A stretch of DNA of 20,000 nt from an uncultured virus (IMG/VR IMGVR_UViG_3300015371_000018) (taxonomy: Duplodnaviria > Heunggongvirae > Uroviricota > Caudoviricetes): the IMG/VR virus record IMGVR_UViG_3300015371_000018, one strand, 5' to 3'. The notes beneath the pieces were generated by a model. That model had not been told where the DNA came from, ran no database searches, and was given only the letters and a program-made list of their open reading frames with translations. This document shows, in pieces, positions 458 through 20,000 of this stretch (its first letter is position 1; every line of letters begins with the position of its first letter). Both the position numbers and the translations under genes were made by a program.

Positions 458-471
458 CTGCTTTTAGACGC

Positions 472-501: not shown

Positions 502-591
502 TGTCATAGCTCCCGTGCTTCATCAATCGCCTCTATTGGTCTGGATCTGAAGCGAGAGCCGTCCTAATGACTGACCCTCTTATTTAATTTA

Positions 592-1248: not shown

Positions 1249-1267
1249 CTATTGATTCACCTCCCTA

Positions 1268-1510: not shown

Positions 1511-1519
1511 ATGCACCTC

Positions 1520-2628: not shown

Positions 2629-2657
2629 CGATTAACCTTTCCCCCTTGCTCCGCGAA

Positions 2658-3377: not shown

Positions 3378-3394
3378 TAATTAATTCACCTCCC

Positions 3395-4456: not shown

Positions 4457-4476
4457 ATCGGGAATTCACCTCCCCT

Positions 4477-5402: not shown

Positions 5403-5420
5403 TAGCTACACCTCCTTCAA

Positions 5421-6671: not shown

Positions 6672-6951
6672 TAGCCGCTACCTCCTGAGGCTTCCCATTT
6701 GATTGAGGTGGCGCTAGTACGGAGAGCAACAGGGAGTGATCGCCGGGGGAGAAAATGTGACCGCAGCCTGTCGGCTTGTAGTGCGGGCATTGAAGGATTG
6801 GATTTGTCTCCATGGCGTACTTCTCGATCTGCTCCAAGCGCTTGTACCACATCAAGTGCCTGGGGATTTCACAATTGGGACAGGTCACCCTGCCACGAGC
6901 GTCAATTAGTGAAGATCCATCAGAGGATTGATTGCCTGTTGCGGCCACCAC
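6661..6951 (-). CDS. Small zinc-ribbon protein
   Basis: CPNC...CPHYKPTGCGHIF; overlaps the protease start. Confidence 0.6.
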   Translation of the reverse strand: MVAATGNQSSDGSSLIDARGRVTCPNCEIPRHLMWYKRLEQIEKYAMETNPILQCPHYKPTGCGHIFSPGDHSLLLSVLAPPQSNGKPQEVAASGA

Positions 6952-7021
6952 GGGCTAGCTTACGGCAAATACAGGCAATCAAATGGAAGTCAAGTAACAA
7001 AATATAGTAGAATTCTGCAAA

Positions 7022-7055
7022 TGTGGCTTGAATAAGCCACAGAACCAGATATGAT
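7022..7055 (+). promoter_or_regulatory. Palindromic operator overlapping a putative promoter
   Basis: TGTGGCTT-gaat-AAGCCACA (7022-7041) overlaps TTGAAT(7028)-N16-TATGAT(7050), upstream of the HTH gene. Confidence 0.55.
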
Positions 7056-7076
7056 CCCGCTGTGAAAGGAGGAATC

Positions 7077-7313
7077 ATGTCACAGGCACTTGACACCCTC
7101 ACGATGCTCTCTCATGGGCTCATTCGAGCGGAAGTGATGACCGCTGGTAAGCGCTCCATGCTTGAGCAGGCGGCTATTTCGATGGTCCGCGACTCGGGCT
7201 ACTCGATTGACGAAGTGTCTGCGGCCTCTGGCCTGACTCCTTCTGAAATCAAGGAATTACTGACTCAGCCGAAGCCCATCGAAAGCCTCGCTGAGCTAAT
7301 GGGTTTAGTTTAA
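7077..7313 (+). CDS. Small HTH DNA-binding protein
   Basis: AAAGGAGG SD before ATG 7077; GYSIDEVSAASGLTPSEIKELL is a helix-turn-helix. Confidence 0.75.
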   Translation: MSQALDTLTMLSHGLIRAEVMTAGKRSMLEQAAISMVRDSGYSIDEVSAASGLTPSEIKELLTQPKPIESLAELMGLV

Positions 7314-7333
7314 GCGGTTGCCCGTGAAGTGTG

Positions 7334-7360
7334 GAAGGCCTGTCCTAGTGGCGGGTCTTC
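7334..7360. terminator. Hairpin between convergent genes
   Basis: GAAGGCCTGTC...GGCGGGTCTTC, 11 bp with G-U pairs on the plus strand. Confidence 0.5.
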
Positions 7361-7364
7361 TGCA

Positions 7365-7538
7365 TTAATAGCCGCCGTTGTAGTGCGACCAGATCCGGGC
7401 GCGCTCGTATTCCTCTTGCTCAGCCTCGGTAAGCGGCGACTTGTGACGCTTGGCGATCCAATACATCAGCGCAGTCCATACGACTCCACCAATGATTAAA
7501 TGTATAAAAGCTACAAGCGTGCTAGTTGCTATCAGCAT
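7365..7538 (-). CDS. Small membrane protein
   Basis: ATG 7538 with GAGGGG SD; hydrophobic N-terminus MLIATSTLVAFIHLIIGGVVWTALMYWI. Confidence 0.6.
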   Translation of the reverse strand: MLIATSTLVAFIHLIIGGVVWTALMYWIAKRHKSPLTEAEQEEYERARIWSHYNGGY

Positions 7539-7770
7539 CAGGTACCCCTCTCGTGGACTTGTCTTCATTCCATTCAAGAGCGCCACTGGCGATCACAATG
7601 CTGACGAGGTGAGGGAGAGTCTTCGCGCTCGCGCGGGTGCGAGCTTTGTCTAGTGTCTGCTGCACAGAGCTTTGAGACAAATGCATATGTTCCGCTATCT
7701 CAGCGGTCGTTAAGCCATTGGCCACATGCACGACCATCTCAAGCTGGCGGAACGTGAGCATTTCGTTCAA
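7522..7770 (-). CDS. LuxR/GerE-type HTH regulator
   Basis: LTFRQLEMVVHVANGLTTAEIAEHMHLSQSSVQQTL matches the LuxR HTH pattern. Start may be the ATG at 7761. Confidence 0.85.
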   Translation of the reverse strand: MNEMLTFRQLEMVVHVANGLTTAEIAEHMHLSQSSVQQTLDKARTRASAKTLPHLVSIVIASGALEWNEDKSTRGVPDADSN

Positions 7771-8074
7771 AAATCTTTCTGGCTATATACGCCGATTCTT
7801 CTTTTATATCCTGCACGATTCTGATCATCACACGGTTGGTTGCATCGGAGACTGCACCGTGGGAATCCTTCTCGTGACCGATCATGCGCCTACAACGTGC
7901 TCGCTTGCCACGTAACTGTTGAAGCCTATCCGTGGTGTAATTAATGTCGCGCTCCATGCGACACATATTGCACCGAATAAATTCCCGCTTAATTCCCTCG
8001 CCCATGTCTTCTGTGCGGAGAGGGAAACGCTGTTTAGATCCGCAGCGCGGGCAACTAGTCTTCGGCTGCTTCAT
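7739..8074 (-). CDS. Zinc-ribbon hypothetical protein
   Basis: CPRC...CNMC followed by a basic helix. Confidence 0.65.
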   Translation of the reverse strand: MKQPKTSCPRCGSKQRFPLRTEDMGEGIKREFIRCNMCRMERDINYTTDRLQQLRGKRARCRRMIGHEKDSHGAVSDATNRVMIRIVQDIKEESAYIARKIFERNAHVPPA

Positions 8075-8339
8075 AGGTTCCTGACTCGAAACACCAAATC
8101 AGCATCCCAAGCCATTCCTCATCTTCAAGGTTCTTTGGCAAATAAATAGAGCAATCTGCCAGACCTTCATCGGTAGCGATTATGATTCTCGCTTCCGACC
8201 AGTTGTCAGGATTATTAAATTCGCAGGCTGCCTCGACTTCGGCCCATCGGTCGAAAACAAAATCCCTAAGAGCCACGGAATTGGAGGCGGCGGCGCGGTG
8301 GCGAGCTTCACAATCCTCCCACAAAGCAAAGTCGATCAC
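8055..8339 (-). CDS. Hypothetical protein
   Basis: GTGA overlap with the upstream stop; GGAGAGG SD. Confidence 0.6.
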   Translation of the reverse strand: MIDFALWEDCEARHRAAASNSVALRDFVFDRWAEVEAACEFNNPDNWSEARIIIATDEGLADCSIYLPKNLEDEEWLGMLIWCFESGTYEAAED

Positions 8340-9274
8340 CTCTTCCTCTCCTTCTTTATGTCGCGTATCAGGCGTGCCATTGCATCCAGCGTTTGCGTGT
8401 TGGCAGCCTTCATTCTACCGCGCATCAGATCCTTCGTGGAGAGGCCGAATTCTTCCCTGGTTTGGTCGAGCTTGATTAATTCTTCATCCTCTTGCTTCTT
8501 AACCTCTTCCCAAGCCTCATAATCAAAGAATTCGTCCAGCGCTTCCTTGTAAAGACCGCGCATAGTTTCAGGTGGAAGTGCATCTAATTCAACCTGCATT
8601 AGCTCGCCATATTGAGCCATGAAGCTTTCTGCTCGTGAATCCCACTCTTTACCAGGCAACGGAGGTAAATTATATTTCTCAAGCTGGTCTTCTCTTAACG
8701 CGACTCGCCTAACATCAGTGAAAATACCCGTGCGATCCAAAAAATCACGGTCGATATCCACTCCGCTTGGATCAAAGTCGCCAGCGTAGAGCAGAACACT
8801 GTTGCGGCCTTGATTAATTACGTCATCCGCGACAACATCAACAAAAGTTTGCGACGAATAACCTCCGAGCGCCAGGATAGGTAAACCATAATCACCAAAC
8901 CAATCTTGTAGCTGGACAACCATACCGTGCTTTTCAACGCCGAGATAAACAGACCATTCTTGATTTTCTGTTCGATCACGACGATAGATTTTCCAAAGCC
9001 AGTACAGCGCATCGTTAGGGTCATCAAATGATTGATTAACTTCAATGGCGCGTGTTCTATCGATGAGCGATGGAAACCATCCCTCTCGGCGAGCCTCTGC
9101 GGTTTTGCGAGACAAAACCTTGTACGCGCTCACGGAGTTAGGAATCATCTGCTCCGAAACAAGCCTGTAGAAAAGCTGGCGCAGCGTCACGCCAGTATCG
9201 TAGGACTTGACAATCGCGCTGGCCGACAGCAGCACGTTCTGCCAATTAATTTGCGTATTCGCCTTGGTCGGCAT
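8336..9274 (-). CDS. Topo VI-A/Spo11-like WHD+TOPRIM protein (Mini-A-like)
   Basis: TLRQLFYRLV (catalytic Tyr region), GVEK (TOPRIM Glu), GDFDPSG (DxD) and VELDAL. Start uncertain (ATG 9274 or TTG 9307). Confidence 0.8.
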   Translation of the reverse strand: MPTKANTQINWQNVLLSASAIVKSYDTGVTLRQLFYRLVSEQMIPNSVSAYKVLSRKTAEARREGWFPSLIDRTRAIEVNQSFDDPNDALYWLWKIYRRDRTENQEWSVYLGVEKHGMVVQLQDWFGDYGLPILALGGYSSQTFVDVVADDVINQGRNSVLLYAGDFDPSGVDIDRDFLDRTGIFTDVRRVALREDQLEKYNLPPLPGKEWDSRAESFMAQYGELMQVELDALPPETMRGLYKEALDEFFDYEAWEEVKKQEDEELIKLDQTREEFGLSTKDLMRGRMKAANTQTLDAMARLIRDIKKERKR

Positions 9275-9653
9275 AGTGCTCGCCAACTGCTTTCGTAAGA
9301 GCGCCAATCACGACTTCACGATTAGACATTTGACTAATTTGGCTATAAGATTCCCGTGTAATGTCAGTAGGTTTATGCCGAATGATGACTCCACGTGGTT
9401 CTTCTTTAATAGTTTGTCCCGGCGCTCTGTAAAAAGTAATTTCTAAATCGTCTTCGTGAAGCTCCCCATTCCAGGGTGAACGCCGGGGAGCTATCTTAAT
9501 TAACTCACGAAGCTGCTCAACTTCTGCCAGCAAACCATCCTTCCAGACCGGATTTTCTACTTTGTCTGAAAAGACCACGGCCGTAGCACACAGTTTCTCC
9601 GCTTGCTCCGCGAGCGCAGCATAGTTTCTCTGCATCTGTTCTGCACTAGGCAT
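9246..9653 (-). CDS. Protein with class I release factor (RF-1) domain-like region, GGQ degenerate
   Basis: DDLEITFYRAPGQ...GVIIRHKPTDITRESYSQISQMSNREVVIGAL aligns by eye with the RF pattern DLRIDTYRASGAGGQ..SAVRITHLPTGIVV.CQ.ERSQ..NK..AM..L. Confidence 0.68.
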   Translation of the reverse strand: MPSAEQMQRNYAALAEQAEKLCATAVVFSDKVENPVWKDGLLAEVEQLRELIKIAPRRSPWNGELHEDDLEITFYRAPGQTIKEEPRGVIIRHKPTDITRESYSQISQMSNREVVIGALTKAVGEHYADQGEYAN

Positions 9654-10497
9654 CTCTATCGCCCTTCAATATATTCATCGCATCAACAGCGAGAGTATTG
9701 ACTTTATCCCAATCATCATTGATATCGGCAGTGTTATCAGCAGATATATTACGAATTCGCTTAATATAACTAAAAGCATTGCCGCGATCAATAGCGTCTG
9801 CCGCTGCATCTATAACAGGAGCGGTTACATCGCCCTCATCAGATACATCGATATCAATTACGTTCTCGCGCTCATCAGGAAGATCAAGCCAAAGTTTGCC
9901 GTCTGCATCATGCCTGTATGTCCAACCGTCTGGAACGCCTTTGAAATCAGGATAATCGTCCCGTTTAATTGTTCTGCCATCGGCAGGAAGCGTAAATGCA
10001 GCAGCTTGAGGCGGAAAAATATCCACAGTCCCGACAGGAACAAGCTGATCTGAAGCGTTACCAGCTTTTTTGACTTTCACACTCGGCATGCTAGGCCACG
10101 TGAGCCTAGTAGTACCAGGCGTCCAATGCCGTCCTTCAGTGTGATCATGAACAAAATCATCGATCTTCTCGCCCTTGAGCAGAGAAGAAACTTGCTGAAG
10201 ACAATCACGCAAAGTAACGAGCCGTCGCATCTGACTCGAATCATCATCAGCGATAACGTGCTCGAACTTTAATGCTTCGTTTGCGAGCTTAGAAGCATTT
10301 TCAATAATACTAGGCAAGCGACCATCTAGCATCGCCTGACGTACAAGGTATTCGGTTTCTACATCTTCAGGAGCCGGGTAAGGCTTCGTGGTTCTATCTA
10401 ATTTATCGTAGGCACCCCGAACGAGTGGGGACCGCAGAAGATCTTCCACGGCCCCCAGCACATTCGATGCCACCTTATCGAATGGCGGCAGTTCCAT
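9646..10497 (-). CDS. Hypothetical protein with internal tail-collar-like segment
   Basis: 283 aa; residues ~153-209 read VPVGTV...ADGRTIKRDDYPDF...LDLPD. Confidence 0.6.
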   Translation of the reverse strand: MELPPFDKVASNVLGAVEDLLRSPLVRGAYDKLDRTTKPYPAPEDVETEYLVRQAMLDGRLPSIIENASKLANEALKFEHVIADDDSSQMRRLVTLRDCLQQVSSLLKGEKIDDFVHDHTEGRHWTPGTTRLTWPSMPSVKVKKAGNASDQLVPVGTVDIFPPQAAAFTLPADGRTIKRDDYPDFKGVPDGWTYRHDADGKLWLDLPDERENVIDIDVSDEGDVTAPVIDAAADAIDRGNAFSYIKRIRNISADNTADINDDWDKVNTLAVDAMNILKGDRDA

Positions 10498-10502
10498 TTT
10501 GT

Positions 10503-10733
10503 TTACTCTTCTTCGGCCTGATCGGTGCGAAGCGTAGAGTGAATCGCAATGACCTTATCGGGGTTAATCGAGATACGACCACCCTGCTCATCGTGAAACT
10601 GGAAATGAGTAAAAGGATCGTCTTCGTGCTCACCAGCCGCCAGATCGTTCAGACGCTTACGAACCTTATTGAACTTCTCATCGTCGCTAAGCTCAAACTC
10701 GCCGCCGCCCATCGTATAAATCGTAGTGCTCAT
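10503..10733 (-). CDS. Hypothetical protein
   Basis: AAGGAG SD, tight packing, ISINPDKVIAI beta motif. Confidence 0.7.
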   Translation of the reverse strand: MSTTIYTMGGGEFELSDDEKFNKVRKRLNDLAAGEHEDDPFTHFQFHDEQGGRISINPDKVIAIHSTLRTDQAEEE

Positions 10734-10735
10734 AT

Positions 10736-10966
10736 TTACTCCTTTACCTTGATATCTACATCTTGGTCAGCGCTGCAAATATCTTCAAACTGACCAATGC
10801 TGTTGGATGCCTGCCATTTAACTGTGTCTTCCCGATTCGGATCATCTGTCTGATCGGGAATTACTTCAACGCGATCTACTTCGAAATAATCATCCCCTCC
10901 TGCAAATCGCAGGTGGAGTTCATCCCCCACCTTAATGTCCCTGGCCTTGATCGTTTTATCGGCCAT
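10736..10966 (-). CDS. Small SH3/KOW-like beta protein
   Basis: IKARDIKVGDEL motif; TAATG overlap with the upstream gene. Confidence 0.6.
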   Translation of the reverse strand: MADKTIKARDIKVGDELHLRFAGGDDYFEVDRVEVIPDQTDDPNREDTVKWQASNSIGQFEDICSADQDVDIKVKE

Positions 10967-11214
10967 TAAATTAGCTCCAATTCCTTCGCTTTATCTGTGC
11001 TTTCGTATGCAATTTCTGTCTTGCCTACCCTCCTGACTAGACCCATATCGATAAGACTCCTAACAATAAATAACGCCGCAATGGTTGTCTTTGGCAATAC
11101 AGACCGAGATTCCTCTTGAGGAAACACAAACCGATCCAGCTTCACCGGCTCGCCCTTGGTCACAAGGAACCTCAAACATGCCTGCTGCCGCTCATTCAGA
11201 TCTGTTTTTAGCAT
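10966..11214 (-). CDS. Winged-helix domain protein
   Basis: LNERQQACLRFL...IVRSLIDMGLVRRV...YESTDKA. Confidence 0.65.
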   Translation of the reverse strand: MLKTDLNERQQACLRFLVTKGEPVKLDRFVFPQEESRSVLPKTTIAALFIVRSLIDMGLVRRVGKTEIAYESTDKAKELELI

Positions 11215-11392
11215 TTAGCTCTAAGTAATAACCTAAATCGCGCATTCGAGCTTGAAGCTCATGCCAACGATCAATCTCAAGAAATTTTTGAGCAGGATTT
11301 TCTACGGCTACTCGTCTTGCAGCTATATATTCATCAAAAGCGATATGTGCTCGCTCCGCTGAATTAACTAAGAGTTCCTGATTCTCACTCAT
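11192..11392 (-). CDS. Hypothetical protein
   Basis: ATGA overlap with the upstream gene. Confidence 0.6.
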   Translation of the reverse strand: MSENQELLVNSAERAHIAFDEYIAARRVAVENPAQKFLEIDRWHELQARMRDLGYYLELNAKNRSE

Positions 11393-11652
11393 GGCTGCGT
11401 CAGTGCTGGCCGTGCGCTAAGACGTAGATCCTCATCAAGTCCGCCGCCTGGGATAACGTCACCGCGCTCCATCGGCATTATATAACCAAATTCTAAGTGC
11501 ATGCCTAACTTCTCAGCCGTTTCAATCATACGTTCATAGACTTCAGTGAATTCAGCAAGATCTTCATCATCGACACTGACAGCCGCACTGAAGTTTAATT
11601 GCACTCGGAACGGTACACGAGTTTCTATTTGGTTATTAAGATCAGGTTCCAT
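11389..11652 (-). CDS. Hypothetical protein
   Basis: 87 aa, co-directional tight packing. Confidence 0.6.
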   Translation of the reverse strand: MEPDLNNQIETRVPFRVQLNFSAAVSVDDEDLAEFTEVYERMIETAEKLGMHLEFGYIMPMERGDVIPGGGLDEDLRLSARPALTQP

Positions 11653-11676
11653 CAGACACCAGGCATTTTCTTTTCT

Positions 11677-12162
11677 TTAGCCGTCTTCTCCCCCGGAATC
11701 GTCTTTTGCTTCGCCGCTATTTTCTCGGCTCGATCCGTTCTTTGGTTGTGCTTCTTCTTCGCTTGCCGTTCGTGGAAGGATAATTTGCGGAGCTTCCTCC
11801 CCTTGCGCCTCTTGCTCAATTGGCACCTCAAATTCCTGCTCGCGGGCTAAGATCGCTTGAATTGAATAAATCTTGGTGAGAATGGTGCCGTCACCGTTCG
11901 GCTTCTCGACGCGGCGGATGGTTTGATCATTAGTTCCACCCTGACACCAGACAACGTGCTCGCCCGGAACAGTCTCAAGCGTCATCTCACCGCCGAATAA
12001 AGGAAACTGGATCTGTGGCTGAGCATCAACCGGGCTGCTGGCGGGATCAACAAATTCGCGGGTCTGAAGGAAACGCTCTGCCATCTCGACCATGCGAAAG
12101 GTAATGGCAGTGACTCTGCGAGTCTTGATTTCCTTTTGTGGCATTCCTGCTTCGTCTGACAT
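11677..12162 (-). CDS. Hypothetical protein with acidic disordered C-terminus
   Basis: 161 aa ORF, AGGT upstream. Confidence 0.65.
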   Translation of the reverse strand: MSDEAGMPQKEIKTRRVTAITFRMVEMAERFLQTREFVDPASSPVDAQPQIQFPLFGGEMTLETVPGEHVVWCQGGTNDQTIRRVEKPNGDGTILTKIYSIQAILAREQEFEVPIEQEAQGEEAPQIILPRTASEEEAQPKNGSSRENSGEAKDDSGGEDG

Positions 12163-12168
12163 ATCTAC

Positions 12169-12360
12169 CTAACCTATTAGCTTTTTATTCTGAACGATGG
12201 TGATGTTCTCCCTCTTGATGGCTTGTTCGATCCAATCTTTCGTATTCCTCCTAAGCTCGCCCTCAAAGACTAGAACTAATTCGTGCCCATTGCCTTGAGT
12301 GATACGCGGGATACGTTCTATCTCGGTTATTTTACAAATAATCTTGTGTTCTAGAGGCAT
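12169..12360 (-). CDS. Hypothetical protein
   Basis: First gene of the leftward run; G-rich SD; start ATG 12360 or GTG 12366. Confidence 0.55.
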   Translation of the reverse strand: MPLEHKIICKITEIERIPRITQGNGHELVLVFEGELRRNTKDWIEQAIKRENITIVQNKKLIG

Positions 12361-12371
12361 GTCCACCCCCC

Positions 12372-12400
12372 TTGACAGCTTGCCGCTATCACAGTAGCAT
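12372..12400 (+). promoter_or_regulatory. Sigma70-type promoter for the rightward gene run
   Basis: TTGACA(12372)-N17-TAGCAT(12395) at the divergence point. Confidence 0.7.
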
Positions 12401-12429
12401 ACGGGGACTAGTCCATCAAGGGAGGTTCG

Positions 12430-12591
12430 ATGAAGAGGATTCTGCTGGTAGTGGCCTGTTTCTACATGGGGAGGCTATGGGAACGGGCGATTTGGAACGT
12501 GCAAATGGACAAGCTCAAGGCCGATCTGGCGGCTGACGCTGAGCAGGACGAAAACGAAGCTGTCATCACGCAGCCGATCAGCTTGAATTAA
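12430..12591 (+). CDS. Small protein with hydrophobic N-terminus (53 aa)
   Basis: Not in track. GGGAGG SD; MKRILLVVACFYMGRLWERAIWNVQMDKLK... Confidence 0.65.
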   Translation: MKRILLVVACFYMGRLWERAIWNVQMDKLKADLAADAEQDENEAVITQPISLN

Positions 12592-12674
12592 TGGAAGGGT
12601 GGATAGTTCTAGGGATATGCCTATGGATATCAAACAAAATGGTGCGATGGATTGGGCTACGGCTGAAGGAATAG
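12591..12674 (+). CDS. Putative 27-aa membrane peptide
   Basis: TAATG coupling to the upstream gene; MEGWIVLGICLWISNKMVRWIGLRLKE. Confidence 0.4.
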   Translation: MEGWIVLGICLWISNKMVRWIGLRLKE

Positions 12675-13393
12675 CCAAATATGCCGTCCGTGAACTTCAA
12701 GCGCTTCAGAAAGAGAAGGAGCTAGCCACGCTCCTACAGATTTTATCTATTCTGAAGCCGAAGATAGTTGTAGAAATCGGCCTGCATCGGGGCGGAACGA
12801 TGTGGGCTTGGATGCAAGCTTGCCCACAAGGGTCTTTATTTATTGGTATAGATGATCCCGGTGCTCCCGGTGGCGCATTTGATGTTCATGTTGCTACACA
12901 GCTAGAGATTTTTGCAGTTAATCGTAGCCAAGAATTTAGGATGCTGGTTGGTGATTCTCATTCAGCGGCTATGCTGGTTGCTTTGACAAATCAATTACAG
13001 GGGCACCAGATCGACTTTCTTTTTATCGACGGCGATCACAGCTATCCCGGTGTCACCCGAGACTGGATGATGTACGGTCCACTGTCTCGGTTTGTTGCAT
13101 TTCATGACATTCTTGATGTGCAATCTCAGGCAATGGGCGATATGGGCGTACATAAATTGTGGCGACAGCTTCGTACAACCAAACAAGCCTTTGAAATTTG
13201 TGAAGACTTGCACCTGCCAGAGCCATTAACTGAAACTGTTCCTTATGCGGGTATAGGATGCGTTGTCCCTGAAGGTAAATTTGTACCTGAATTTACTATC
13301 AAGGACAGTTGCATGGAGTGTTTCACGCTAGCTAGTTGCATAATCAAAGGTAGCTGTCGGCAGTATCACAGGCCAGATCACGAACCGGTATAG
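12647..13393 (+). CDS. Class I SAM-dependent methyltransferase (Methyltransf_24-like)
   Basis: VVEIGLHRGGT (motif I), GDS, IDFLFIDGDHSY and AFHD. Start uncertain (12599-12647). Confidence 0.85.
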   Translation: MDWATAEGIAKYAVRELQALQKEKELATLLQILSILKPKIVVEIGLHRGGTMWAWMQACPQGSLFIGIDDPGAPGGAFDVHVATQLEIFAVNRSQEFRMLVGDSHSAAMLVALTNQLQGHQIDFLFIDGDHSYPGVTRDWMMYGPLSRFVAFHDILDVQSQAMGDMGVHKLWRQLRTTKQAFEICEDLHLPEPLTETVPYAGIGCVVPEGKFVPEFTIKDSCMECFTLASCIIKGSCRQYHRPDHEPV

Positions 13394-13400
13394 GAGGGAT

Positions 13401-13781
13401 ATGCAAGAGATAATTAAATGTAGGGCTGGAATCTCAGAAGATTGCCTTGACGGCCATCTATTTTATGAAGATGAAGAACTTCTGAGTGACGATGCCACCT
13501 GGGATGGCGATACGATCATCTGTGATGCCTGCCATCTGGCGGCAATGCCATTTAGTAGCTCAGGAGCGATGCTCAATCATGAATTTAATGACGCAATCAG
13601 GATTTACAGGGAGAACCTTGAATTCGCTATGAACCATCCTCACCCGGCAGAGCTAGTCAAGCTTTCTCAAGAAACAGCAGACTTGGCTCTTGAAGGTACT
13701 CCGCGCCATCGCTCTGCGCTCGCCTGTAAGGAAATAGCTCTGCGCGAGATTGAAAGGAGAAAGATCAGTGGAAGAAAATAA
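13401..13781 (+). CDS. Hypothetical Cys-containing protein
   Basis: AGGAGG SD; CRAGISEDC...CDAC. Confidence 0.7.
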   Translation: MQEIIKCRAGISEDCLDGHLFYEDEELLSDDATWDGDTIICDACHLAAMPFSSSGAMLNHEFNDAIRIYRENLEFAMNHPHPAELVKLSQETADLALEGTPRHRSALACKEIALREIERRKISGRK

Positions 13782-13977
13782 TGAATCTCTGATTCGTGAG
13801 CTAGACGAATCGGTAAATACGGTCCAGAACTGTGAAAAGAAGCTGAAAAAGTCCCGCGATGACCGCGATGAAGTGATTAAAAGAATGGTCAATGCCGGAT
13901 TTACCTACAGAAAGATCGCTGTACGGGCCGGTGTCTCGCCCACGCACGTAGGAGATGTGGTGAATGGACAAAATTAG
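13768..13977 (+). CDS. HTH DNA-binding protein
   Basis: AAAGGAG SD before GTG 13768; coiled coil then GFTYRKIAVRAGVSPTHVGDVV. Confidence 0.75.
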   Translation: MEENNESLIRELDESVNTVQNCEKKLKKSRDDRDEVIKRMVNAGFTYRKIAVRAGVSPTHVGDVVNGQN

Positions 13978-14188
13978 GCCACTTACCAAGATCAAGCCGG
14001 GGCACTGGCAGACCAAAAACGGTGAATATGAATTCAAAGAGGGTCGTGGCAAGCGCTGGTTTGTCTATGGGCTTGGCGGGACGGTTGGCTTTCCTGAGAC
14101 AGCTATCACGCCTGTTGGTCATCGATCCTTAGAAACGGCCATCATTTTTATGGAAAAGTACGTACTGCCCTATGAGGATGAGAAATAA
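13964..14188 (+). CDS. Hypothetical protein
   Basis: GGAG SD; overlapping packing. Confidence 0.65.
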   Translation: MDKIRPLTKIKPGHWQTKNGEYEFKEGRGKRWFVYGLGGTVGFPETAITPVGHRSLETAIIFMEKYVLPYEDEK

Positions 14189-14385
14189 TGGGATATTCAG
14201 TTAAAGCTATTTACGATGAAGGCCAGAATCAAGCTATCGAGACTTTCCACTCTGGAATTTTCTCTGCGGTGGGCGATGTTCACGATAAGCTCGTGGGCTT
14301 ACCTGAGAAAATAGTGATCGAGCAGGTTGAATGGGAAACATGGTCTGCCATGAACCCAAGGGAGCGCACCAGTGACCGTACTTGA
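14188..14385 (+). CDS. Hypothetical protein
   Basis: TAATG coupling. Confidence 0.6.
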   Translation: MGYSVKAIYDEGQNQAIETFHSGIFSAVGDVHDKLVGLPEKIVIEQVEWETWSAMNPRERTSDRT

Positions 14386-14707
14386 GTATGTAAATAAGGA
14401 ACGCAGGGAGCGTAAGAAAAAGCCGCTCAAAAAGGGTCGGCTGCTCCGTTTATCGGCCCGGCGCATGGCCAAAAAGTTAAATAGGACGCATGTTCTGAAG
14501 CATGATGCTGTGATCCATGTCAATAAGAAATTCTGGTGGGCCGGTGAGGTACTTGGCGATGGCCAGAAAAGCTCTAAGCAAATCGTAGAAGAATGGATGG
14601 CAAGTCGCGCACACTACGACATAATCATGTCTGACAAAGCTAGGCGATTAGGCGCAGCGCACGTAGGCAAGTATTGGGTAGCTCACCTGGGCCGGATTGG
14701 GCCGTGA
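14372..14707 (+). CDS. CAP (SCP/PR-1, YkwD-like) domain protein
   Basis: VLEYVNKER..PL..L...AR, LKH, AGEVL, IVEEWMASRAHYDIIM and YWV match the CAP pattern. Confidence 0.85.
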   Translation: MTVLEYVNKERRERKKKPLKKGRLLRLSARRMAKKLNRTHVLKHDAVIHVNKKFWWAGEVLGDGQKSSKQIVEEWMASRAHYDIIMSDKARRLGAAHVGKYWVAHLGRIGP

Positions 14708-14781
14708 CTTACGCAATTACGGTAATAATAGCATTAATTTTACTAGCAATTATGTGTCGAATCTATTGGGGACGGTGGTAA
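14704..14781 (+). CDS. Putative 25-aa membrane peptide
   Basis: GTGA overlap upstream and TAATG overlap downstream; MTYAITVIIALILLAIMCRIYWGRW. Confidence 0.55.
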   Translation: MTYAITVIIALILLAIMCRIYWGRW

Positions 14782-14978
14782 TGACAAGCAAATGGAGAAT
14801 ATTAGCTAACGCACTAGCGTATGGAGCATTTCTAGTTGCTGTTTGGTATCTCGTCGGGGCAATTTTTGGAGATGTTCAAAGCGCAAAGACATATTTCTAC
14901 ACGGGCGCAGCCGCAGCAACAGGATTCTACGTAGGCGGATCTATTTGGGGGCCAATTTATGCCAGCAGAACCTATTGA
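14781..14978 (+). CDS. Small membrane protein
   Basis: ATG 14781; two hydrophobic segments. Confidence 0.6.
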   Translation: MTSKWRILANALAYGAFLVAVWYLVGAIFGDVQSAKTYFYTGAAAATGFYVGGSIWGPIYASRTY

Positions 14979-15240
14979 TCTAGCAAAGCAGAAGCAAATA
15001 GTTAAAAAAGAGATGATCGCGCTGGTAGAGCACTTCATGTATACCCGCGCGGGACTCCACCTACTTGCTGATGAAGCATTCGAAGACTGGCAAGATGAGC
15101 GCTACCAGGGAGCCGAGCAATGTCCGAATTGCCGCGACTGGTTCCAAAAAGGCGTTCGTAACAAAGGCAAGCGTTGTTTAGTTAATCATGCCGAAGGTGC
15201 CTGCTGCCATTATCACGATATTAGAGTGGAGGCAAACTGA
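14959..15240 (+). CDS. Cys/His-rich hypothetical protein
   Basis: CPNC...CLVNHAEGACCHYH. Confidence 0.65.
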   Translation: MPAEPIDLAKQKQIVKKEMIALVEHFMYTRAGLHLLADEAFEDWQDERYQGAEQCPNCRDWFQKGVRNKGKRCLVNHAEGACCHYHDIRVEAN

Positions 15241-15437
15241 TGGCCGACGTACAAATCTATGTCAACGCCGAATTTGATGAAGAAGGCGAAGAAAAGTATT
15301 GGGATCTACCATTCCGCGAGCAAAGCCGTCTAGACGACGCAATCAAAGCTCACGTTAAAGGGTTTGTTGCTGATCTGGATATGTCAACTGAAGAAATAGA
15401 AGGATTTAACGTCGATTTTAACGTGGAGGTGAGTTAA
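15240..15437 (+). CDS. Hypothetical acidic protein
   Basis: GGAGG SD; TGATG coupling. Confidence 0.7.
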   Translation: MADVQIYVNAEFDEEGEEKYWDLPFREQSRLDDAIKAHVKGFVADLDMSTEEIEGFNVDFNVEVS

Positions 15438-15637
15438 TGCCAGCATTCGAGGTGCATTTTGCGGATAGTTCTACGCTGAAATCACAATATATTGAAATAC
15501 AGAAATCTATCCTCATTATGGCCGAGAACTCAATCGAAGCGATCACCTTGGCCAGCGGCAAAGAAGAGATACGCAAATTCTACCGGCGCTATGACGGTGA
15601 GCTAGTTGCTAGCGCTCACCCCTATATACCAGACTGA
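15437..15637 (+). CDS. Hypothetical protein
   Basis: GGAGGTGA SD; TAATG coupling. Confidence 0.7.
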   Translation: MPAFEVHFADSSTLKSQYIEIQKSILIMAENSIEAITLASGKEEIRKFYRRYDGELVASAHPYIPD

Positions 15638-15649
15638 TTAGGATAATAA

Positions 15650-15832
15650 ATGAAGCTAGAAGCATTAATTTGTGTCGAGGTACCTGATCAGGTCGCCGAT
15701 GCGATGCTGGCCGAACGCAAAAGCATCCGATCCTCCTATCAGGTCGTATTTAAAGACGAAAACGACGATCAATACTCATATCGGGTCGAATTCAGGATGC
15801 CCTGGAAGAAAATCGATGCGGTGGAACAATAA
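15650..15832 (+). CDS. Hypothetical protein
   Basis: AGGA SD; 60 aa. Confidence 0.6.
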   Translation: MKLEALICVEVPDQVADAMLAERKSIRSSYQVVFKDENDDQYSYRVEFRMPWKKIDAVEQ

Positions 15833-16268
15833 CAATAAAATATTCGTAGACCCTGAGACATACGATGTAGATCAGATCATTACTTATCATTCGCCTTATC
15901 GTTCACCAGAAGAGCCAATTTACGACGATAGTAAACAGCCTGAAATCGTAAACTCCCTGCATCTGCCCGACCTGCGGCAGGAGTATTGGGTAGATGACTT
16001 TGCCGCTCGCGCGACTCTGATCGAGGCTCTGCCCAAACCTCCTAAGGTGCGCAAGTACCCATGGTATTTATCTCAGCACACCCGTTTTGTGCTGATCCTT
16101 TGTAGTATTTATATATTAGCCGTGATAGCGGTTCTATATATGGCCAACGAAAACTTCCACGAGCAGCAGGCACACAAAGACAAGATGGAACACAGAATCA
16201 AACAAGAACAACAGCACAGCAAAGAGATAGGAAGAATGCTAGATGGAATTAACCAAACAACAAGATAG
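15816..16268 (+). CDS. Single-pass membrane protein
   Basis: Probable start ATG 15816; TM segment FVLILCSIYILAVIAVLYMA followed by coiled coil. Confidence 0.6.
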   Translation: MRWNNNNKIFVDPETYDVDQIITYHSPYRSPEEPIYDDSKQPEIVNSLHLPDLRQEYWVDDFAARATLIEALPKPPKVRKYPWYLSQHTRFVLILCSIYILAVIAVLYMANENFHEQQAHKDKMEHRIKQEQQHSKEIGRMLDGINQTTR

Positions 16269-16476
16269 GGCTTTCTTTGAAGCGCTTCTAGCTGAGGGGT
16301 ATCAAGAAGAGGGCTTGATAGTTAAATTCCCACCGGGCGGCTGGCTGCGCGCGGGAACATACAAGCTGACCAAGGAAGATCCAGTAGAAGTAACCAAATT
16401 CGAGACAGATCCAACTACTCGCTGCTATTTATTTATTATGGACCACGTATTCAGGATGGAGCGCATAGATGATTGA
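16243..16476 (+). CDS. Hypothetical protein
   Basis: Overlapping packing. Confidence 0.6.
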   Translation: MELTKQQDRAFFEALLAEGYQEEGLIVKFPPGGWLRAGTYKLTKEDPVEVTKFETDPTTRCYLFIMDHVFRMERIDD

Positions 16477-16813
16477 ACTAAATGACGTATCACGAATCCT
16501 AGACCGGATCACCTATAAGCCTGGCTGGCTATTTAATGTCTACGATAAAGAATACCTGGGAGGGCTCTGGCCTGATCAGATCGTGGTGCTGATCCAAGTC
16601 ATTAAACCAACCGTCGAGCGCGACATAGGAACCTACTCAGCAGCGGTTCCTGTTGCTCTCCTGGCCACCAAGGATTTCGAGCCAGCTTTCCTCCGTTGGT
16701 TCGAAGAGAACATCGCGGAAGTAGAAAAACAAATGGCGCAAGAATATCTCAAGATCGACAACAAAAAATTCGCGGCCTACTTGCTTGAAAACTTCGTTAG
16801 TGAACCCAGCTAG
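16469..16813 (+). CDS. Hypothetical phage protein
   Basis: GGAG SD; ITYKPGW motif. Confidence 0.7.
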   Translation: MIELNDVSRILDRITYKPGWLFNVYDKEYLGGLWPDQIVVLIQVIKPTVERDIGTYSAAVPVALLATKDFEPAFLRWFEENIAEVEKQMAQEYLKIDNKKFAAYLLENFVSEPS

Positions 16814-16863
16814 CGGAAGCTATCGCTCGCAACTTAAATTTCAGGACAAGATCAGGAGGTTAT

Positions 16864-17013
16864 ATGGAGACACAGGTAACGGTCAGGGAATATTGGTTTT
16901 GTGGAACCTACTACCACATCGCAACCGAGCGGGTCGGGCTAGGAAATACGCGCATCTCGCATTTTATTCGAGCACGTGAAAACGAAGAATGGTGGACGGT
17001 GATCGTCATATGA
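16864..17013 (+). CDS. Hypothetical protein (49 aa)
   Basis: Not in track. AGGAGG SD; METQVTVREYWFCGTYYHIATERVG...; ATGA overlap with the next gene. Confidence 0.65.
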   Translation: METQVTVREYWFCGTYYHIATERVGLGNTRISHFIRARENEEWWTVIVI

Positions 17014-17264
17014 CAAATGTAGAAGAACTAGCAAAAGCAATCAACCCACCGGCGATCAGTATCATCTCTGCTGCTCTGTCTATCCCGCATATCGAGGAAG
17101 AACAACGCCGTATCAAGGGTTATATGAAAGAAAAAGACATAGGCCGTGAGGACTTTAAGCGTCTATATAACCGATATCAAGATGCTGACAACCTACGGCG
17201 CACTGCCTTAAAGTTAATTGGAATCGAAGACCCACTGTACGACCCGCCAGGATTAGATAAATGA
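17010..17264 (+). CDS. Hypothetical protein
   Basis: Start ATG 17010 inferred from ATGA coupling. Confidence 0.6.
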   Translation: MTNVEELAKAINPPAISIISAALSIPHIEEEQRRIKGYMKEKDIGREDFKRLYNRYQDADNLRRTALKLIGIEDPLYDPPGLDK

Positions 17265-17566
17265 AAATTGAACTAGATGAAAAAGAAGATGAGCTTGAGG
17301 TTGAATGGAACGAAGGCAAGTCGATAGTTGAACTCCTATTTAATCCAGATGAGACTCTGCTTTTCATAGGAAAACTGCGGCTGCGCGTGAGTTTCGAGAA
17401 GTGGATATTACAAGTAGAAGATAGAGGCAAATACTATCGGGACTGGCAGACCATCGCTGAAGGAACCAATGATGGCAAACTGCTGGTGCCTGATATCACT
17501 CGCCTAGCTGAGCGAGATGCTGAGGGAAGGTTATGGGTACCCGAACGCCCGCCGAAGATTGATTAA
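17261..17566 (+). CDS. Hypothetical protein
   Basis: ATGA coupling; last gene before the non-coding stretch. Confidence 0.65.
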   Translation: MKIELDEKEDELEVEWNEGKSIVELLFNPDETLLFIGKLRLRVSFEKWILQVEDRGKYYRDWQTIAEGTNDGKLLVPDITRLAERDAEGRLWVPERPPKID

Positions 17567-17771
17567 ATGAAGTACACCTCGCCCACCCGGATTGATTCAT
17601 GCCTCTTGTCACCATACTTCACCAAAATAATATTTCCCACAATTTTGGGAGTCTCGGCTACTACCGTAGGGGCCAGGATGCCAGGGTGGTCCTTGAGGAA
17701 TCAGGGTGCCCCGATTAATCAAAATCGTTTTATCAAATAGAGGATTTTGAGTAAATAGGACCTTTTGATTA

Positions 17772-17836
17772 ACTTTGTGACAATTGTTACATCTACGCGC
17801 GGGTATTAGTAGACCAGGGAGACTTTGTAACAATTG
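17772..17836. repeat. Direct repeat ACTTTGTRACAATTG; first copy forms a CRP-like palindrome
   Basis: Copies at 17772 and 17822; TGTGA-CAATTG-TTACA at 17776-17791. Confidence 0.55.
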
Positions 17837-18001
17837 ATTCAAATGCAATCTTTAGATTTCTTGTGCACGTGCCCATTGACCCTGGTCGCCAGGTTCGATA
17901 GTCTTCCTGGCAGAGATTGATTGAAGGGTCTAAGTGAGACCAGGGACATTCCGCCTCGTGCGTTGACCTCCCGGCTCAAAAAGAATTTTTCAAAAAGTCT
18001 C

Positions 18002-18031
18002 TTGACAAGTAGCATTGAAGTGTGATAGGCT
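18002..18031 (+). promoter_or_regulatory. Sigma70 promoter P1
   Basis: TTGACA-N18-TAGGCT with extended TG and A/T tracts upstream. Confidence 0.7.
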
Positions 18032-18040
18032 TCGCTGGAC

Positions 18041-18117
18041 AGTCAAGTTAAAGAAAAGGAATCGGACAGTCTCCCTAGTGAGCTACTTGATCCGCCAATC
18101 TTTTTCATAAATTGACT
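18041..18117 (+). ncRNA. Putative structured RNA A
   Basis: AGTCAAGTTA..GAAAAGGA..CGGA pairs imperfectly with TCCG..TCTTTTTC..TAAATTGACT; no ORF. Confidence 0.4.
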
Positions 18118-18145
18118 TGACAAGTAGCACGGCAGGTGATAGAGT
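18117..18145 (+). promoter_or_regulatory. Sigma70 promoter P2
   Basis: TTGACA-N17-TAGAGT with extended TG. Confidence 0.7.
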
Positions 18146-18154
18146 AGTAAAAGG

Positions 18155-18230
18155 TTGAGAGTAAATGAGAGGGATTCCGAAAAATGAATCCTGCAATATG
18201 AAGGGGCAGGCTATCCCTCTCTACTCTCGA
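18155..18230 (+). ncRNA. Putative structured RNA/leader B
   Basis: TTGAGAGTA-aat-GAGAGGGAT pairs with ATCCCTCTC-TACTCTCGA; inner CCTGC/GCAGG hairpin. Confidence 0.5.
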
Positions 18231-18258
18231 ATGTCATAAAATAAAATAGGAGCGACCG

Positions 18259-18627
18259 ATGCGTTATCCGCGACTGTCGCCCGATGCAAAGCTAACGATA
18301 GGTGTCATGCCTTCCGCCGTGGTCTGCACGGGTGACGGCTGGGATAACCTCACGGTTAGCAAGCGCAAGAGGGCTTCACGTAACCGGCGATCCAAGTCTG
18401 CTAGCAAGCGGATCAAGGATCAAGTCAATAACGAGCCTAGCGGCAGTCTGCTTGCCGCGCTCGATAAGGCACGGCAGGCATGGACCGATGCTGAGCCTGG
18501 CAAGGACAAGCAAGCTGCGCTCAAGGTTGTAGTACGCCTTGAGATGAGGGCAGGTATCCGCGACCGTGCGGGTAAGACTGTCACCCTGGACTACATGCCT
18601 GAGACATGGGCATCGGGGCAGAATTAA
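18259..18627 (+). CDS. Hypothetical basic protein
   Basis: AGGAG SD; 122 aa with an Arg/Lys-rich middle. Confidence 0.7.
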   Translation: MRYPRLSPDAKLTIGVMPSAVVCTGDGWDNLTVSKRKRASRNRRSKSASKRIKDQVNNEPSGSLLAALDKARQAWTDAEPGKDKQAALKVVVRLEMRAGIRDRAGKTVTLDYMPETWASGQN

Positions 18628-18641
18628 TTTAGAAAAAGGAC

Positions 18642-18670
18642 TTGACAATTGGCAAGGATGCCAGTAGGGT
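18642..18670 (+). promoter_or_regulatory. Sigma70 promoter P3
   Basis: TTGACA-N17-TAGGGT. Confidence 0.65.
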
Positions 18671-18677
18671 GTAATTA

Positions 18678-18836
18678 ATGAATGACCAAGAAAAACGCAT
18701 CATTTGGGTCTATGCAGATAAGGTCACGCAAGACTCAAATAACGGTAGCCTAGCTATCTATACGGCAGACGCTACCCTCCTGGTTCGCATGCCTGACGAA
18801 GGCATCACAAAGCCAGACTATGAAGACGAAGATTAA
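18678..18836 (+). CDS. Probable leaderless small protein (52 aa)
   Basis: Not in track. ATG 7 nt after the P3 -10, no SD; MNDQEKRIIWVYADKVTQDSNNGSLAIYT... Confidence 0.6.
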   Translation: MNDQEKRIIWVYADKVTQDSNNGSLAIYTADATLLVRMPDEGITKPDYEDED

Positions 18837-18852
18837 GTTTAGTCACGCGCTC

Positions 18853-18881
18853 TTGACACCTATTAATTAATTTGATAATAT
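18853..18881 (+). promoter_or_regulatory. Sigma70 promoter P4
   Basis: TTGACA-N17-TAATAT with extended TG. Confidence 0.75.
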
Positions 18882-18886
18882 GCCTT

Positions 18887-19105
18887 GAGTGTGCGCTAGA
18901 AGGACTACCATATCTGAGGATTATCTGAGGGTATAGGTAGAGTGTTCCACCATAGAAACTTTGCAGTATAATCGTGACAAGTGGCATATATGGCTTAGGT
19001 ATGCAGGATAAGGTGTAAAGCATCCTTTCCATATTGCTAAATAGAGTGTTGATTTAATGTCAAAGGAATGAGATAGGTATGGCTTTGTCCTGGCTAGTGT
19101 CATTC
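18887..19105 (+). ncRNA. Putative structured RNA C (~220 nt)
   Basis: 5' GAGTG/GCGCTAG/AGGAC pair with 3' GTCCT/CTAGTGT/CATTC using G-U pairs; no plus-strand ORF in the track. Confidence 0.45.
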
Positions 19106-19143
19106 TACTTTCACGGTATTCTTTCTTTCCAAAAACTTTTCAC

Positions 19144-19240
19144 GGATCGAGAGCTAGCTAACCTCTGGATCGAGCACTACTCTGACCGTGGGTATCGTAC
19201 TGAGATTCGTACTCTAGGTAAGTAGTCTCTCGCGCCACCA
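19144..19240 (+). ncRNA. Putative structured RNA E ending in ACCA
   Basis: CGAGAG-CTAGCTAACCT pairs with AGGTAAGTAG-T-CTCTCG; three short inner hairpins; followed by CGCCACCA. Confidence 0.4.
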
Positions 19241-19268
19241 TTAAATTTAAGGGAAGGTAATCTGACAA

Positions 19269-19454
19269 GTGGCAATTTCTGACCTTACAACCGAGCATTG
19301 GGCAGCTATCGCGGTTGCTCTCGATCATCGTATTGATGGGCTTGAGCAAATGCGGAATGATGCCACCAATCTGGCGACTGTCCGAGCTTTTGATAAAGGA
19401 ATCAAGTTTTACCAGGAGACTCGTGACCTGATTCCATTCCCCGATAGGGGTTGA
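19269..19454 (+). CDS. Hypothetical protein
   Basis: 61 aa, GTG start, fills the gap before P5. Confidence 0.55.
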   Translation: MAISDLTTEHWAAIAVALDHRIDGLEQMRNDATNLATVRAFDKGIKFYQETRDLIPFPDRG

Positions 19455-19479
19455 CAAGTAGCTTAGTATCTGCTATTTT
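19451..19479 (+). promoter_or_regulatory. Sigma70 promoter P5
   Basis: TTGACA-N17-TATTTT with extended TG. Confidence 0.65.
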
Positions 19480-19610
19480 CTTAAATGTCAGTCTGTCGGT
19501 ATTCTAACCGGGTAAAAGACCGGAATATCCGACCGGCCTCCCTATTTAGGGATGACGACTTCCCGAAGGGCTAAGCCCTGAGACAGTCTCCCGGCAGGCT
19601 GACATTTAAG
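19480..19610 (+). ncRNA. Putative structured RNA/leader D
   Basis: 20-bp terminal stem CTTAAATGTCAGTCTGTCGG / CCGGCAGGCTGACATTTAAG (two G-U pairs) enclosing several hairpins. Confidence 0.6.
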
Positions 19611-19625
19611 CAAATAAAGGATGAT

Positions 19626-19850
19626 ATGACTTACGTTATTCCCGTACATGCTGAGCTTCACGGTAAGCAATTCTCGATTTGGCGAGGCTCCACCTTCCTA
19701 GCTGAAGGCTATCTGACCAACTTTACCGGCCATATCGGAATTCATGTAACATCGGTGCGCGGCGGAATCATGAATGCCACCGATGCGCTACTGGACTTTT
19801 TCAAGGATGAGGTACGCAAGGAACTTGAGCGAGAGGCGCGTGAGGCTTAA
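19626..19850 (+). CDS. Hypothetical protein
   Basis: AAAGGA SD; 74 aa. Confidence 0.7.
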   Translation: MTYVIPVHAELHGKQFSIWRGSTFLAEGYLTNFTGHIGIHVTSVRGGIMNATDALLDFFKDEVRKELEREAREA

Positions 19851-20000
19851 ATGAATCCGCCCACCATAGAAGGTCTAACCTACTTTGAGCGGCATATCTT
19901 GAAAATCTGTATCGAGCGGTACATTCAAGATATTCGTAAGGCATGCCTTGAGGATCAGGGTAACGCGGATGGCGCAGAAGGTACGGTCGGCCGCGATATG
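19851..20000 (+). CDS. Hypothetical protein (partial)
   Basis: ATG directly after the previous stop, GAGG SD, open to the window end: MNPPTIEGLTYFERHILKICIERY... Confidence 0.6.
   Translation, partial: MNPPTIEGLTYFERHILKICIERYIQDIRKACLEDQGNADGAEGTVGRDM

Follow-up and report, generated by a model that had tools for sequence, protein, structure and literature searches.

Clustered near-consensus promoters and two folded leaders among the tiny genes of an uncultured soil phage

What does a phage gain from placing five near-consensus promoters within 1.5 kb, and are the RNAs that begin there structured for a purpose? We asked this of a 20,000-nucleotide (nt) stretch of DNA (the window, in whose numbering all positions are given) from IMG/VR virus record IMGVR_UViG_3300015371_000018, which carries genes of an uncultured soil or rhizosphere phage; the sequencing runs that contain the stretch are labelled rhizosphere or soil metagenome. 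An earlier note, made from the letters alone, had proposed that four of the promoters in 18002-19610 each start an RNA whose first bases pair with a segment downstream, that a fifth element of this kind lies nearby, and that the set represents either phage small RNAs (decoys or anti-defence RNAs) or leaders processed by RNase III. We find that the promoters are far more numerous than expected by chance, and that two of the five elements fold much better than their surroundings. The explanation we favour, at somewhat better than even chances, is that these two are structured 5' leaders that protect and/or process the messenger RNAs (mRNAs) of a high-expression early module of the phage. Such an arrangement is well known from phage early genes and does not amount to a new type of RNA system.

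The promoter cluster and its genes

A scan of both strands of the window for TTGACA-N16-18-TANNNT gave 6 matches where 0.49 were expected (standard deviation 0.68), a number reached by none of 200 shuffled sequences. All six (12372, 18002, 18117, 18642, 18853 and 19451) lie on the plus strand and five fall in 18002-19479, which bears out the five strong promoters in 1.5 kb that had been described. Each of these five has a -35 TTGACA and a -10 TAnnnT 16-18 nt apart, as in promoters of the primary-sigma (sigma-70) type:

P18002, 17986..18031, plus strand: AT-rich tract 17986-18001; -35 TTGACA 18002-18007; 18-nt spacer ending in TG-n; -10 TAGGCT 18026-18031.
P18117, 18101..18145, plus strand: AT-rich tract; -35 18117-18122; 17-nt spacer with TG-n; -10 TAGAGT 18140-18145.
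P18642, 18626..18670, plus strand: -35 18642-18647 within the near-palindrome TTGACAATTGGCAA; -10 TAGGGT 18665-18670; no TG.
P18853, 18853..18881, plus strand: TTGACA, 17 nt with TG-n, TAATAT.
P19451, 19451..19479, plus strand: TTGACA, 17 nt with TG-n, TATTTT.

Four of the five have an extended -10 (TG one base upstream of the -10) and three an AT-rich upstream tract (64-76%), and a 29-nt block is common to P18002 and P18117. Around the -35 lies a longer asymmetric motif, TTGACAAGTAGCA, of which six copies at two or fewer mismatches occur between 18002 and 19463, all on the plus strand. In a near-identical record of 94 kb (G002), 4 of 7 promoter matches lie in the last 1.1 kb, corresponding to window 18002-18881, and all four copies of TTGACAAGTAGCA at one mismatch or fewer sit in the cluster, with none elsewhere. 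Scanning viral contigs for the promoter design TTGACAAGTAGCA-N6-9-TGATAG returned the same phage only. Transcription would start ~7 nt past each -10, with predicted starts near 18038, 18152, 18678, 18888 and 19485, and no terminator-like site was found on the plus strand in 17500-20000.

We scored coding potential as a codon-usage log-odds trained on 36 long open reading frames (ORFs) from the rest of G002. Six small ORFs downstream score 0.18-0.32 per codon, like other genes of the plus-strand block; one is an open ORF from 19851, and the other five are listed here. The stretches 17567-17740 and 18015-18110 score -0.02 and -0.14.

122-amino-acid orphan gene, 18259..18627, plus strand: coding-like.
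52-amino-acid gene, 18678..18836, plus strand: 0.31 per codon; ATG 8 nt past the -10 TAGGGT of P18642.
48-amino-acid gene, 19079..19225, plus strand: coding-like codon usage; takes in most of 19144-19240.
61-amino-acid gene, 19269..19454, plus strand: GTG start; stop codon TGA inside the -35 of P19451; coding-like.
74-amino-acid orphan gene, 19626..19850, plus strand: coding-like; no relative found.

The non-coding stretches are 17567-18258 (~690 nt, with two promoters and the proposed elements 1 and 2), 18628-18677, 18837-19078 and 19455-19625. Each promoter heads one or two tiny orphan genes (122, 52, 48 + 61 and 74 amino acids), and Shine-Dalgarno (SD) ribosome-binding sites lie at 18248-18252 (AGGAG) and 19617-19621 (AAGGA). 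Since the ATG of the 52-amino-acid gene follows the -10 so closely, the mRNA from P18642, whose start site is itself inferred, is probably leaderless.

Folding of the proposed elements

The elements that had been proposed, and one segment inside the last of them, are as follows:

Element 1, 18041..18117, plus strand: folds weakly into a rod; 3' arm supplied by the AT-rich tract upstream of P18117.
Element 2, 18155..18230, plus strand: 76-nt leader structure; stems of 9 + 9 bp with a 3-nt bulge between.
Element 3, 18887..19105, plus strand: non-coding leader of ~190 nt, together with the opening codons of ORF 19079; long-range pairing not above chance.
Element 4 (proposed), 19144..19240, plus strand: mostly inside coding-like ORF 19079-19225; unstructured.
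Element 5, 19480..19610, plus strand: 131-nt leader; 20-bp closing helix (19480-19499 with 19591-19610) around a multi-hairpin interior.
Element 5 core, 19506..19542, plus strand: 37 nt; three short contigs from two other rhizosphere runs carry it with 2-3 differences.

End pairing was measured with RNAduplex between the first transcribed bases and the segment 40-260 nt downstream, and compared with 1400 positions of the window treated with the same 14 start offsets. The pairing after P19451 (-29.5 kcal/mol, 0.14% of the null) and after P18117 (-24.2 kcal/mol, 1.3%) stands out; that after P18853 (-18.8 kcal/mol, 19%) and P18002 (-16.6 kcal/mol, 40%) is ordinary. Folding against shuffled controls picks out the same two elements. 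Element 5 folds at -56.7 kcal/mol, with z-scores of -5.86 and -6.37 in two runs (in the second, 0 of 200 shuffles were as good), and element 2 at -29.7 kcal/mol, with z-scores of -3.91 and -3.99 in two runs. Elsewhere in the window, 1 of 158 segments of 76 nt reaches -3.9 and none of 133 segments of 131 nt reaches -5 (minimum -4.58). The remaining z-scores are -2.57 and -2.27 (two runs) for element 1, -2.04 for element 3, and -0.59 and -0.73 (two runs) for element 4. Promoter-linked, end-paired RNAs therefore hold for elements 5 and 2 (z about -6 and -4) and fail for elements 1 and 3, whose end pairing is within chance; the separate fifth element disappears altogether, being unstructured and part of a coding-like ORF. 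Element 1 is probably not an independent RNA element. An 11-mer common to elements 1 and 5, GACAGTCTCCC, is by our own estimate about what chance gives in a 2.6-kb stretch.

The frequency of G-U among the non-Watson-Crick positions had been offered as a sign of RNA rather than DNA structure, an argument that turns out weak: the two good stems contain 3 G-U pairs by eye, two of them in the 20-bp helix of element 5, and their plus-strand folds are only ~1 kcal/mol better than the minus-strand ones. For element 3 the plus-strand fold is better by 16.7 kcal/mol.

Both well-folded elements occupy the interval between a promoter and the ribosome-binding site of the gene that follows. Element 2 begins 2-4 nt past the predicted start and ends 17 nt before the SD AGGAG and 28 nt before ATG 18259. 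The 3' arm of element 5 ends 6 nt before the SD AAGGA, and ATG 19626 comes next. Its arms are the best of 11 local inverted repeats in the 20-kb window, the closing helix can be extended to 26 nt at 88% complementarity (19474-19499 with 19591-19616), and the interior holds several short hairpins and three ACCGG words at 12-nt spacing. Because the predicted start, ~19485, lies inside the 5' arm, the 5' end of this transcript would be fully paired, and the complete 20-26-bp helix would be present only in read-through transcripts from upstream promoters. For starts 6-8 nt past the -10, element 2 has a predicted unpaired 5' overhang of 2-4 nt and element 5 one of 0 nt. In transcript context, pair probabilities are 0.95-0.99 for the element 2 helices and 0.96-0.99 for the element 5 helix, and both SDs are unpaired.

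Functions considered for the leaders

How might such leaders work? In the explanation we favour, the primary sigma factor of the host would read five near-consensus promoters that are arranged in tandem on the same strand without intervening terminators. The first transcribed bases of two of the resulting mRNAs would pair with a segment just 5' of the ribosome-binding site, which would itself stay free. Two consequences, one or both of which may apply, are envisaged. A buried 5' end could block 5'-end-dependent decay (by RppH with RNase E or RNase J); RppH requires at least two unpaired 5' nucleotides according to a passage in PMC3997798, so helical pairing of the 5' end should confer resistance to RppH and with it to this route of decay. 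The 18-26 bp helix could also serve as an RNase III-type processing site, at which read-through transcripts would be cut into gene-sized, defined mRNAs. For the E. coli enzyme, one section of PMC3867540 puts the ideal substrate at 22 bp. A helix of about 20-22 bp, bulges allowed, is found in element 5 (20 bp, extending to 26 nt) and in element 2 (9 + 9 bp), and each lies within a longer transcript, having no terminator-like site and an SD and ORF 3' of it. Since no terminator follows either good structure, we regard them as leaders and not as free-standing small RNAs. Of the two readings first offered, processed leaders among tiny genes is the better: it fits the layout, in which the good structures lie 0-4 nt from the predicted start and 6-18 nt before an SD and a coding-like ORF. 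Early timing, start sites, and stabilisation or cleavage are what we infer beyond the observed promoters, folds, layout and absence of terminators.

Several results weigh against this explanation. With only two of four promoter-proximal end pairings above chance, and with P18642 lacking a leader, structure is not general in the module. When the first 45 nt after 17 such promoters in 6 related phage records were tested for a 5' hairpin, the mean z-score was -0.59 against -0.11 for controls, a trend that is not significant (Mann-Whitney p = 0.096). In the collections searched, neither leader had a full-length homologue, which leaves selection for structure unproven and yields no covariation statistics. 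In element 5 it is the core and not the closing helix that recurs elsewhere, and neither a stabiliser nor an RNase III site would need so elaborate an interior. Finally, the start sites, the cleavage and the half-lives are all predicted, and the RNases invoked, known from other bacteria, may not be those of the host.

The searches behind these statements covered RNA families, phages, plasmids and metagenomic contigs. Rfam (E up to 10) returned 3 matches, all sub-threshold (best 21.2 bits against 33) and none sensible for a phage, so that, as had been stated, no named RNA family is recognised here. ARAGORN found 0 transfer RNA (tRNA) or transfer-messenger RNA (tmRNA) genes. There was no blastn match for 17500-20000 among phages or for 19474-19616 among phages and plasmids, and a covariance model of element 5 had 0 matches in 28 related phage records. 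Words from the element 5 core gave only chance matches in viral contigs: 9 with a 16-mer, 75 with a 15-mer (mostly coding) and 3 with a degenerate 23-mer. In genome contigs a 21-mer gave 0 matches and the degenerate 23-mer at least 120 stretches, the best model score outside the window being 16 bits among the 80 loci listed. That 16-bit match (L181) was rejected as a homologue of element 5, as it falls in a palindromic repeat array. Positions 1-623 of L181, a contig of an uncultured bacterium's metagenome-assembled genome, hold ATCCCGCGGGAT-centred repeats with variable spacers, and the match is a chance pattern match.

Four DNA runs were compared over 17600-20000 as low-depth contigs, and these contain no variants inside either good stem. 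The contigs that match 19506-19542 have sequence beyond the core unlike that of the window. By eye, their 30-letter flanks keep CGGTA upstream and GGGATGAC..CTTCC.GA downstream in register with the window, and the hairpin 3' of the core is apparently kept, its loop altered and one base longer, with a U-A to C-G exchange. Going by these short flanks and an alignment by eye, we read the contigs as probable diverged homologues from more GC-rich genomes. A tentative extension, which we think unlikely, is that the 131-nt leader 19480-19610 is the first member of an undescribed structured-RNA family of soil phages or bacteria, its core kept across very different G+C contents while the helices drift; it would then be a specific sensor, a protein-binding operator or a counter-defence RNA, sited immediately after a strong early promoter, and not a generic stabiliser.

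The core is also one reason to consider that element 5, and perhaps element 2, is a specific cis-regulatory RNA of a new riboswitch- or operator-like family, in which the interior binds a protein (such as the product of the 74-amino-acid gene) or a small molecule and so sets translation or stability. A 20-bp helix closing around several hairpins and abutting an SD would suit such a role, as would a 37-nt core that matches contigs of two other runs when the closing helix does not, with flanks in register and a hairpin kept through a U-A to C-G exchange (by eye); the core is also poorly defined in the centroid structure, as might be expected of a binding pocket or tertiary contact. We nevertheless consider this reading doubtful: Rfam has no match, an expression platform is lacking (the predicted fold leaves the SD free, and no terminator is present), the homologues are seen only as 30-letter flanks of short contigs, and the element 5 model is without a match in the 28 related phage records or the 80 genome loci listed. 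Slightly less credible is a reading of the elements as stand-alone small RNAs of the phage (decoys, anti-defence or regulatory RNAs) that processing, and not termination, would free from the transcripts. In its favour are a strong promoter for each element, ends that pair with each other in elements 2 and 5, a trait of many stable RNAs, a helix in which a cut by RNase III could release a structured body, and the lack of any coding-like ORF in the first 690 nt (17567-18258). Set against this, no element is followed by a terminator or U-tract, so that discrete ends are not to be expected; 6-18 nt 3' of each good element come an SD and a coding-like ORF; and neither an Rfam family, a tRNA, a tmRNA nor repeats like those of RNA antitoxins or mimics of clustered regularly interspaced short palindromic repeats (CRISPR) were found. 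With only two of the five elements above chance and one lying in a gene, the set of phage small RNAs once envisaged is not supported.

The opposite extreme, to which we give about as little credence as to stand-alone RNAs, is that only the promoters are functional and the folds are by-products of local sequence, such as AT-rich tracts pairing with A-rich leaders or recent duplications. Elements 1, 3 and 4 are indeed at chance level, the next promoter's upstream tract accounts for the 3' arm of element 1, coding segments of the region reach z-scores of about -4, and conservation could not be shown. Such an origin sits poorly with element 5, whose z-score of -6.4 is unmatched in 133 background segments, whose arms form the best inverted repeat in 20 kb and whose core recurs in other samples, and with the fact that both good stems occupy the interval from start site to SD. 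We think it very improbable that the function lies instead in the DNA, as an insert resembling a miniature inverted-repeat transposable element (143 bp with 26-nt terminal inverted repeats) or as protein-binding sites, or in leaderless micro-peptides of 29 (ATG 19485) and 24 (ATG 18165) amino acids. The 26-nt arms are 88% complementary, the core occurs in other contigs with unlike flanks, and ATG 19485 stands 6 nt past the -10, a position comparable to the start of the 18678 gene, whose message is probably leaderless. Yet element 5 is single-copy, its model finding no second instance in the window or in G002; no target-site duplication is apparent by eye; and, with a spacer of 91 nt, a cruciform is unlikely. 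Codon usage in the micro-ORFs of the leaders is non-coding-like (-0.04 per codon for that from ATG 19485 and -0.09 for that from ATG 18165, against 0.18-0.32 for real genes), and single-base length differences among the variant contigs (by eye) would break the reading frame.

Structured leaders on early mRNAs, the reading we prefer, have parallels in known systems. The early region of phage T7 has tandem host promoters A1-A3 followed by RNase III sites R0.3 to R1.3, all within a single polycistronic early transcript. Like it, the present module combines tandem strong host-type promoters before small early genes with irregular ~20-bp helices between promoter and gene or between genes, and lacks terminators between units. 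The promoters of T7 are stacked at one end, whereas here they are interleaved, with one for each gene or pair of genes; element 5, a multi-branched domain of 131 nt, is not a simple hairpin with an internal loop, and cleavage here is predicted. In T7 the ~7000-nt early precursor carries five RNase III signals, as one passage of PMC3867540 has it. Neither Rfam nor blastn gave any sequence likeness to the T7 early region.

The host-takeover genes of phage SPO1 are small and early, with strong promoters and ribosome-binding sites, in the portion of PMC6873191 that describes them. The present cluster is likewise a dense run of small genes with a strong host-type promoter and a ribosome-binding site per unit, and the orphan proteins of SPO1 are presumed in the same portion to act on the host (PMC6873191). 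The SPO1 module lies in the terminal redundancy, and structured leaders are not a noted feature of it; no protein homology to it was found. Early RNA of SP82, a relative of SPO1, has RNase III sites. A third comparison is with 5' stem-loop stabilisers (E. coli ompA and papA, B. subtilis aprE), which have a stable stem a few nt from the 5' end and an accessible SD downstream, an arrangement that the present leaders would share if transcription starts 6-8 nt past the -10. The known ones are short hairpins, unlike the 76- and 131-nt domains here, in which the 5' end, at predicted starts, pairs with the far end of the leader. Papers on all three stabilisers are named in the reference list of PMC3997798.

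Some features of the cluster resemble operators. The stoperators of mycobacteriophage L5 are 13-bp asymmetric repressor sites, one of which overlaps the -35 of the early promoter. Here too a 12-13-nt asymmetric motif, TGACAAGTRGCA, includes the -35 and occurs in one orientation, with two copies lacking a usable -10 (18975 and 19263); unlike stoperators, it is confined to 1.5 kb and not genome-wide, and no repressor gene was identified. Part of the likeness could be explained by promoter duplication. The two copies, at 18975-18986 and 19263-19274, are exact instances of TGACAAGTGGCA in promoter orientation, the second including the GTG start of the 61-amino-acid gene; by analogy with stoperators they may be sites of a factor that also covers the promoter -35. 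At 17771-17841, in a 430-nt non-coding stretch 5' of the first promoter, are two plus-strand copies of ACTTTGTRACAATTG, each part-palindromic around AATT and 50 bp apart; as an inverted repeat the pair ranks second in the window. The copies have the look of operators or of a boxA-like signal, and the near-palindrome TTGACAATTGGCAA at the -35 of P18642 is similar.

Genome context and meaning

Structural genes, among them those for a major head protein (phrog_29) and protease-like and decoration-like proteins, occupy the minus strand from 1 to ~7000, and from 12430 to the window end the plus strand carries a long block of small genes, most of them orphans. The sixth consensus promoter, at 12372, lies at the divergent junction of the two blocks and heads the plus-strand one; 3' of it are a short leader, an SD (GGGAGG) and a 53-amino-acid ORF, 12430-12591, with weak codon-usage support (0.07 per codon). 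The block also encodes a Methyltransf_24-type methyltransferase (12599-13393, E 1.3e-8) and a CAP/SCP-domain protein (14372-14707, E 2.3e-8).

Within the cluster, the 122-amino-acid protein retrieved itself, one protein 71-72% identical on a 1.7-kb contig, and weak matches. Its C-terminal LDYMPETWASGQ is invariant in it and two relatives (P0002 and P0004), the remainder diverging to 35% identity, and may be a short docking motif. For the 74-amino-acid protein no relatives were found, and PHROGs, Pfam and the ESM Atlas gave no function for any of the small proteins. A metagenome scan for related loci with protein anchors found one identical contig and one weak locus.

Two near-identical records cover part of the window: G001 (66.5 kb), which terminates at position 18424, and G002 (94.2 kb), which matches 1-19091 at 100% and is 83% complete by CheckV, implying a whole genome of ~113 kb. 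A metagenome contig (L047) covers 14259-19831 with 1 mismatch. These three independent assemblies thus all break inside the promoter cluster (at 18424, 19091 and 19831), where Logan contigs are also fragmented; micro-diversity, low depth or a nearby genome end could be the cause. No RNA sequencing runs containing the stretch are listed.

The capsid protein had 0 matches among 50,697 deposited phage records, which places the phage in a lineage without a cultured relative in that collection; 30 loci with related capsid proteins were found. The best complete relative (G003, 112 kb, capsid protein 65% identical) has the structural genes in common with the window and none of the plus-strand early genes, and no promoter cluster was found in it. 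In a more distant one (G007, capsid protein 49% identical), three TTGACA promoters lie in 2.4 kb near a contig end (L046 8850-9313, minus strand). The first leads into ~400 nt without an obvious ORF, with a 7-bp hairpin at the start, and the third into a tight 7-bp 5' hairpin (z -3.5). The TAGNNT-type -10 boxes of the window and its probable leaderless message hint at an actinobacterial host.

What the cluster offers is a sequence-level example of how high early expression may be arranged in a soil phage without cultured relatives: a near-perfect host promoter for each tiny gene, two heavily folded leaders and one message that is probably leaderless. Should the leaders prove to protect or process mRNA, the T7/SPO1 design would reach into an unrelated lineage of phages, and compact promoter-plus-insulator parts would become available. 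Should the core of element 5 belong to a conserved RNA family, a new cis-regulatory RNA would be there for characterisation. The orphan proteins encoded downstream of the promoters make good candidates for factors of host takeover or anti-defence.

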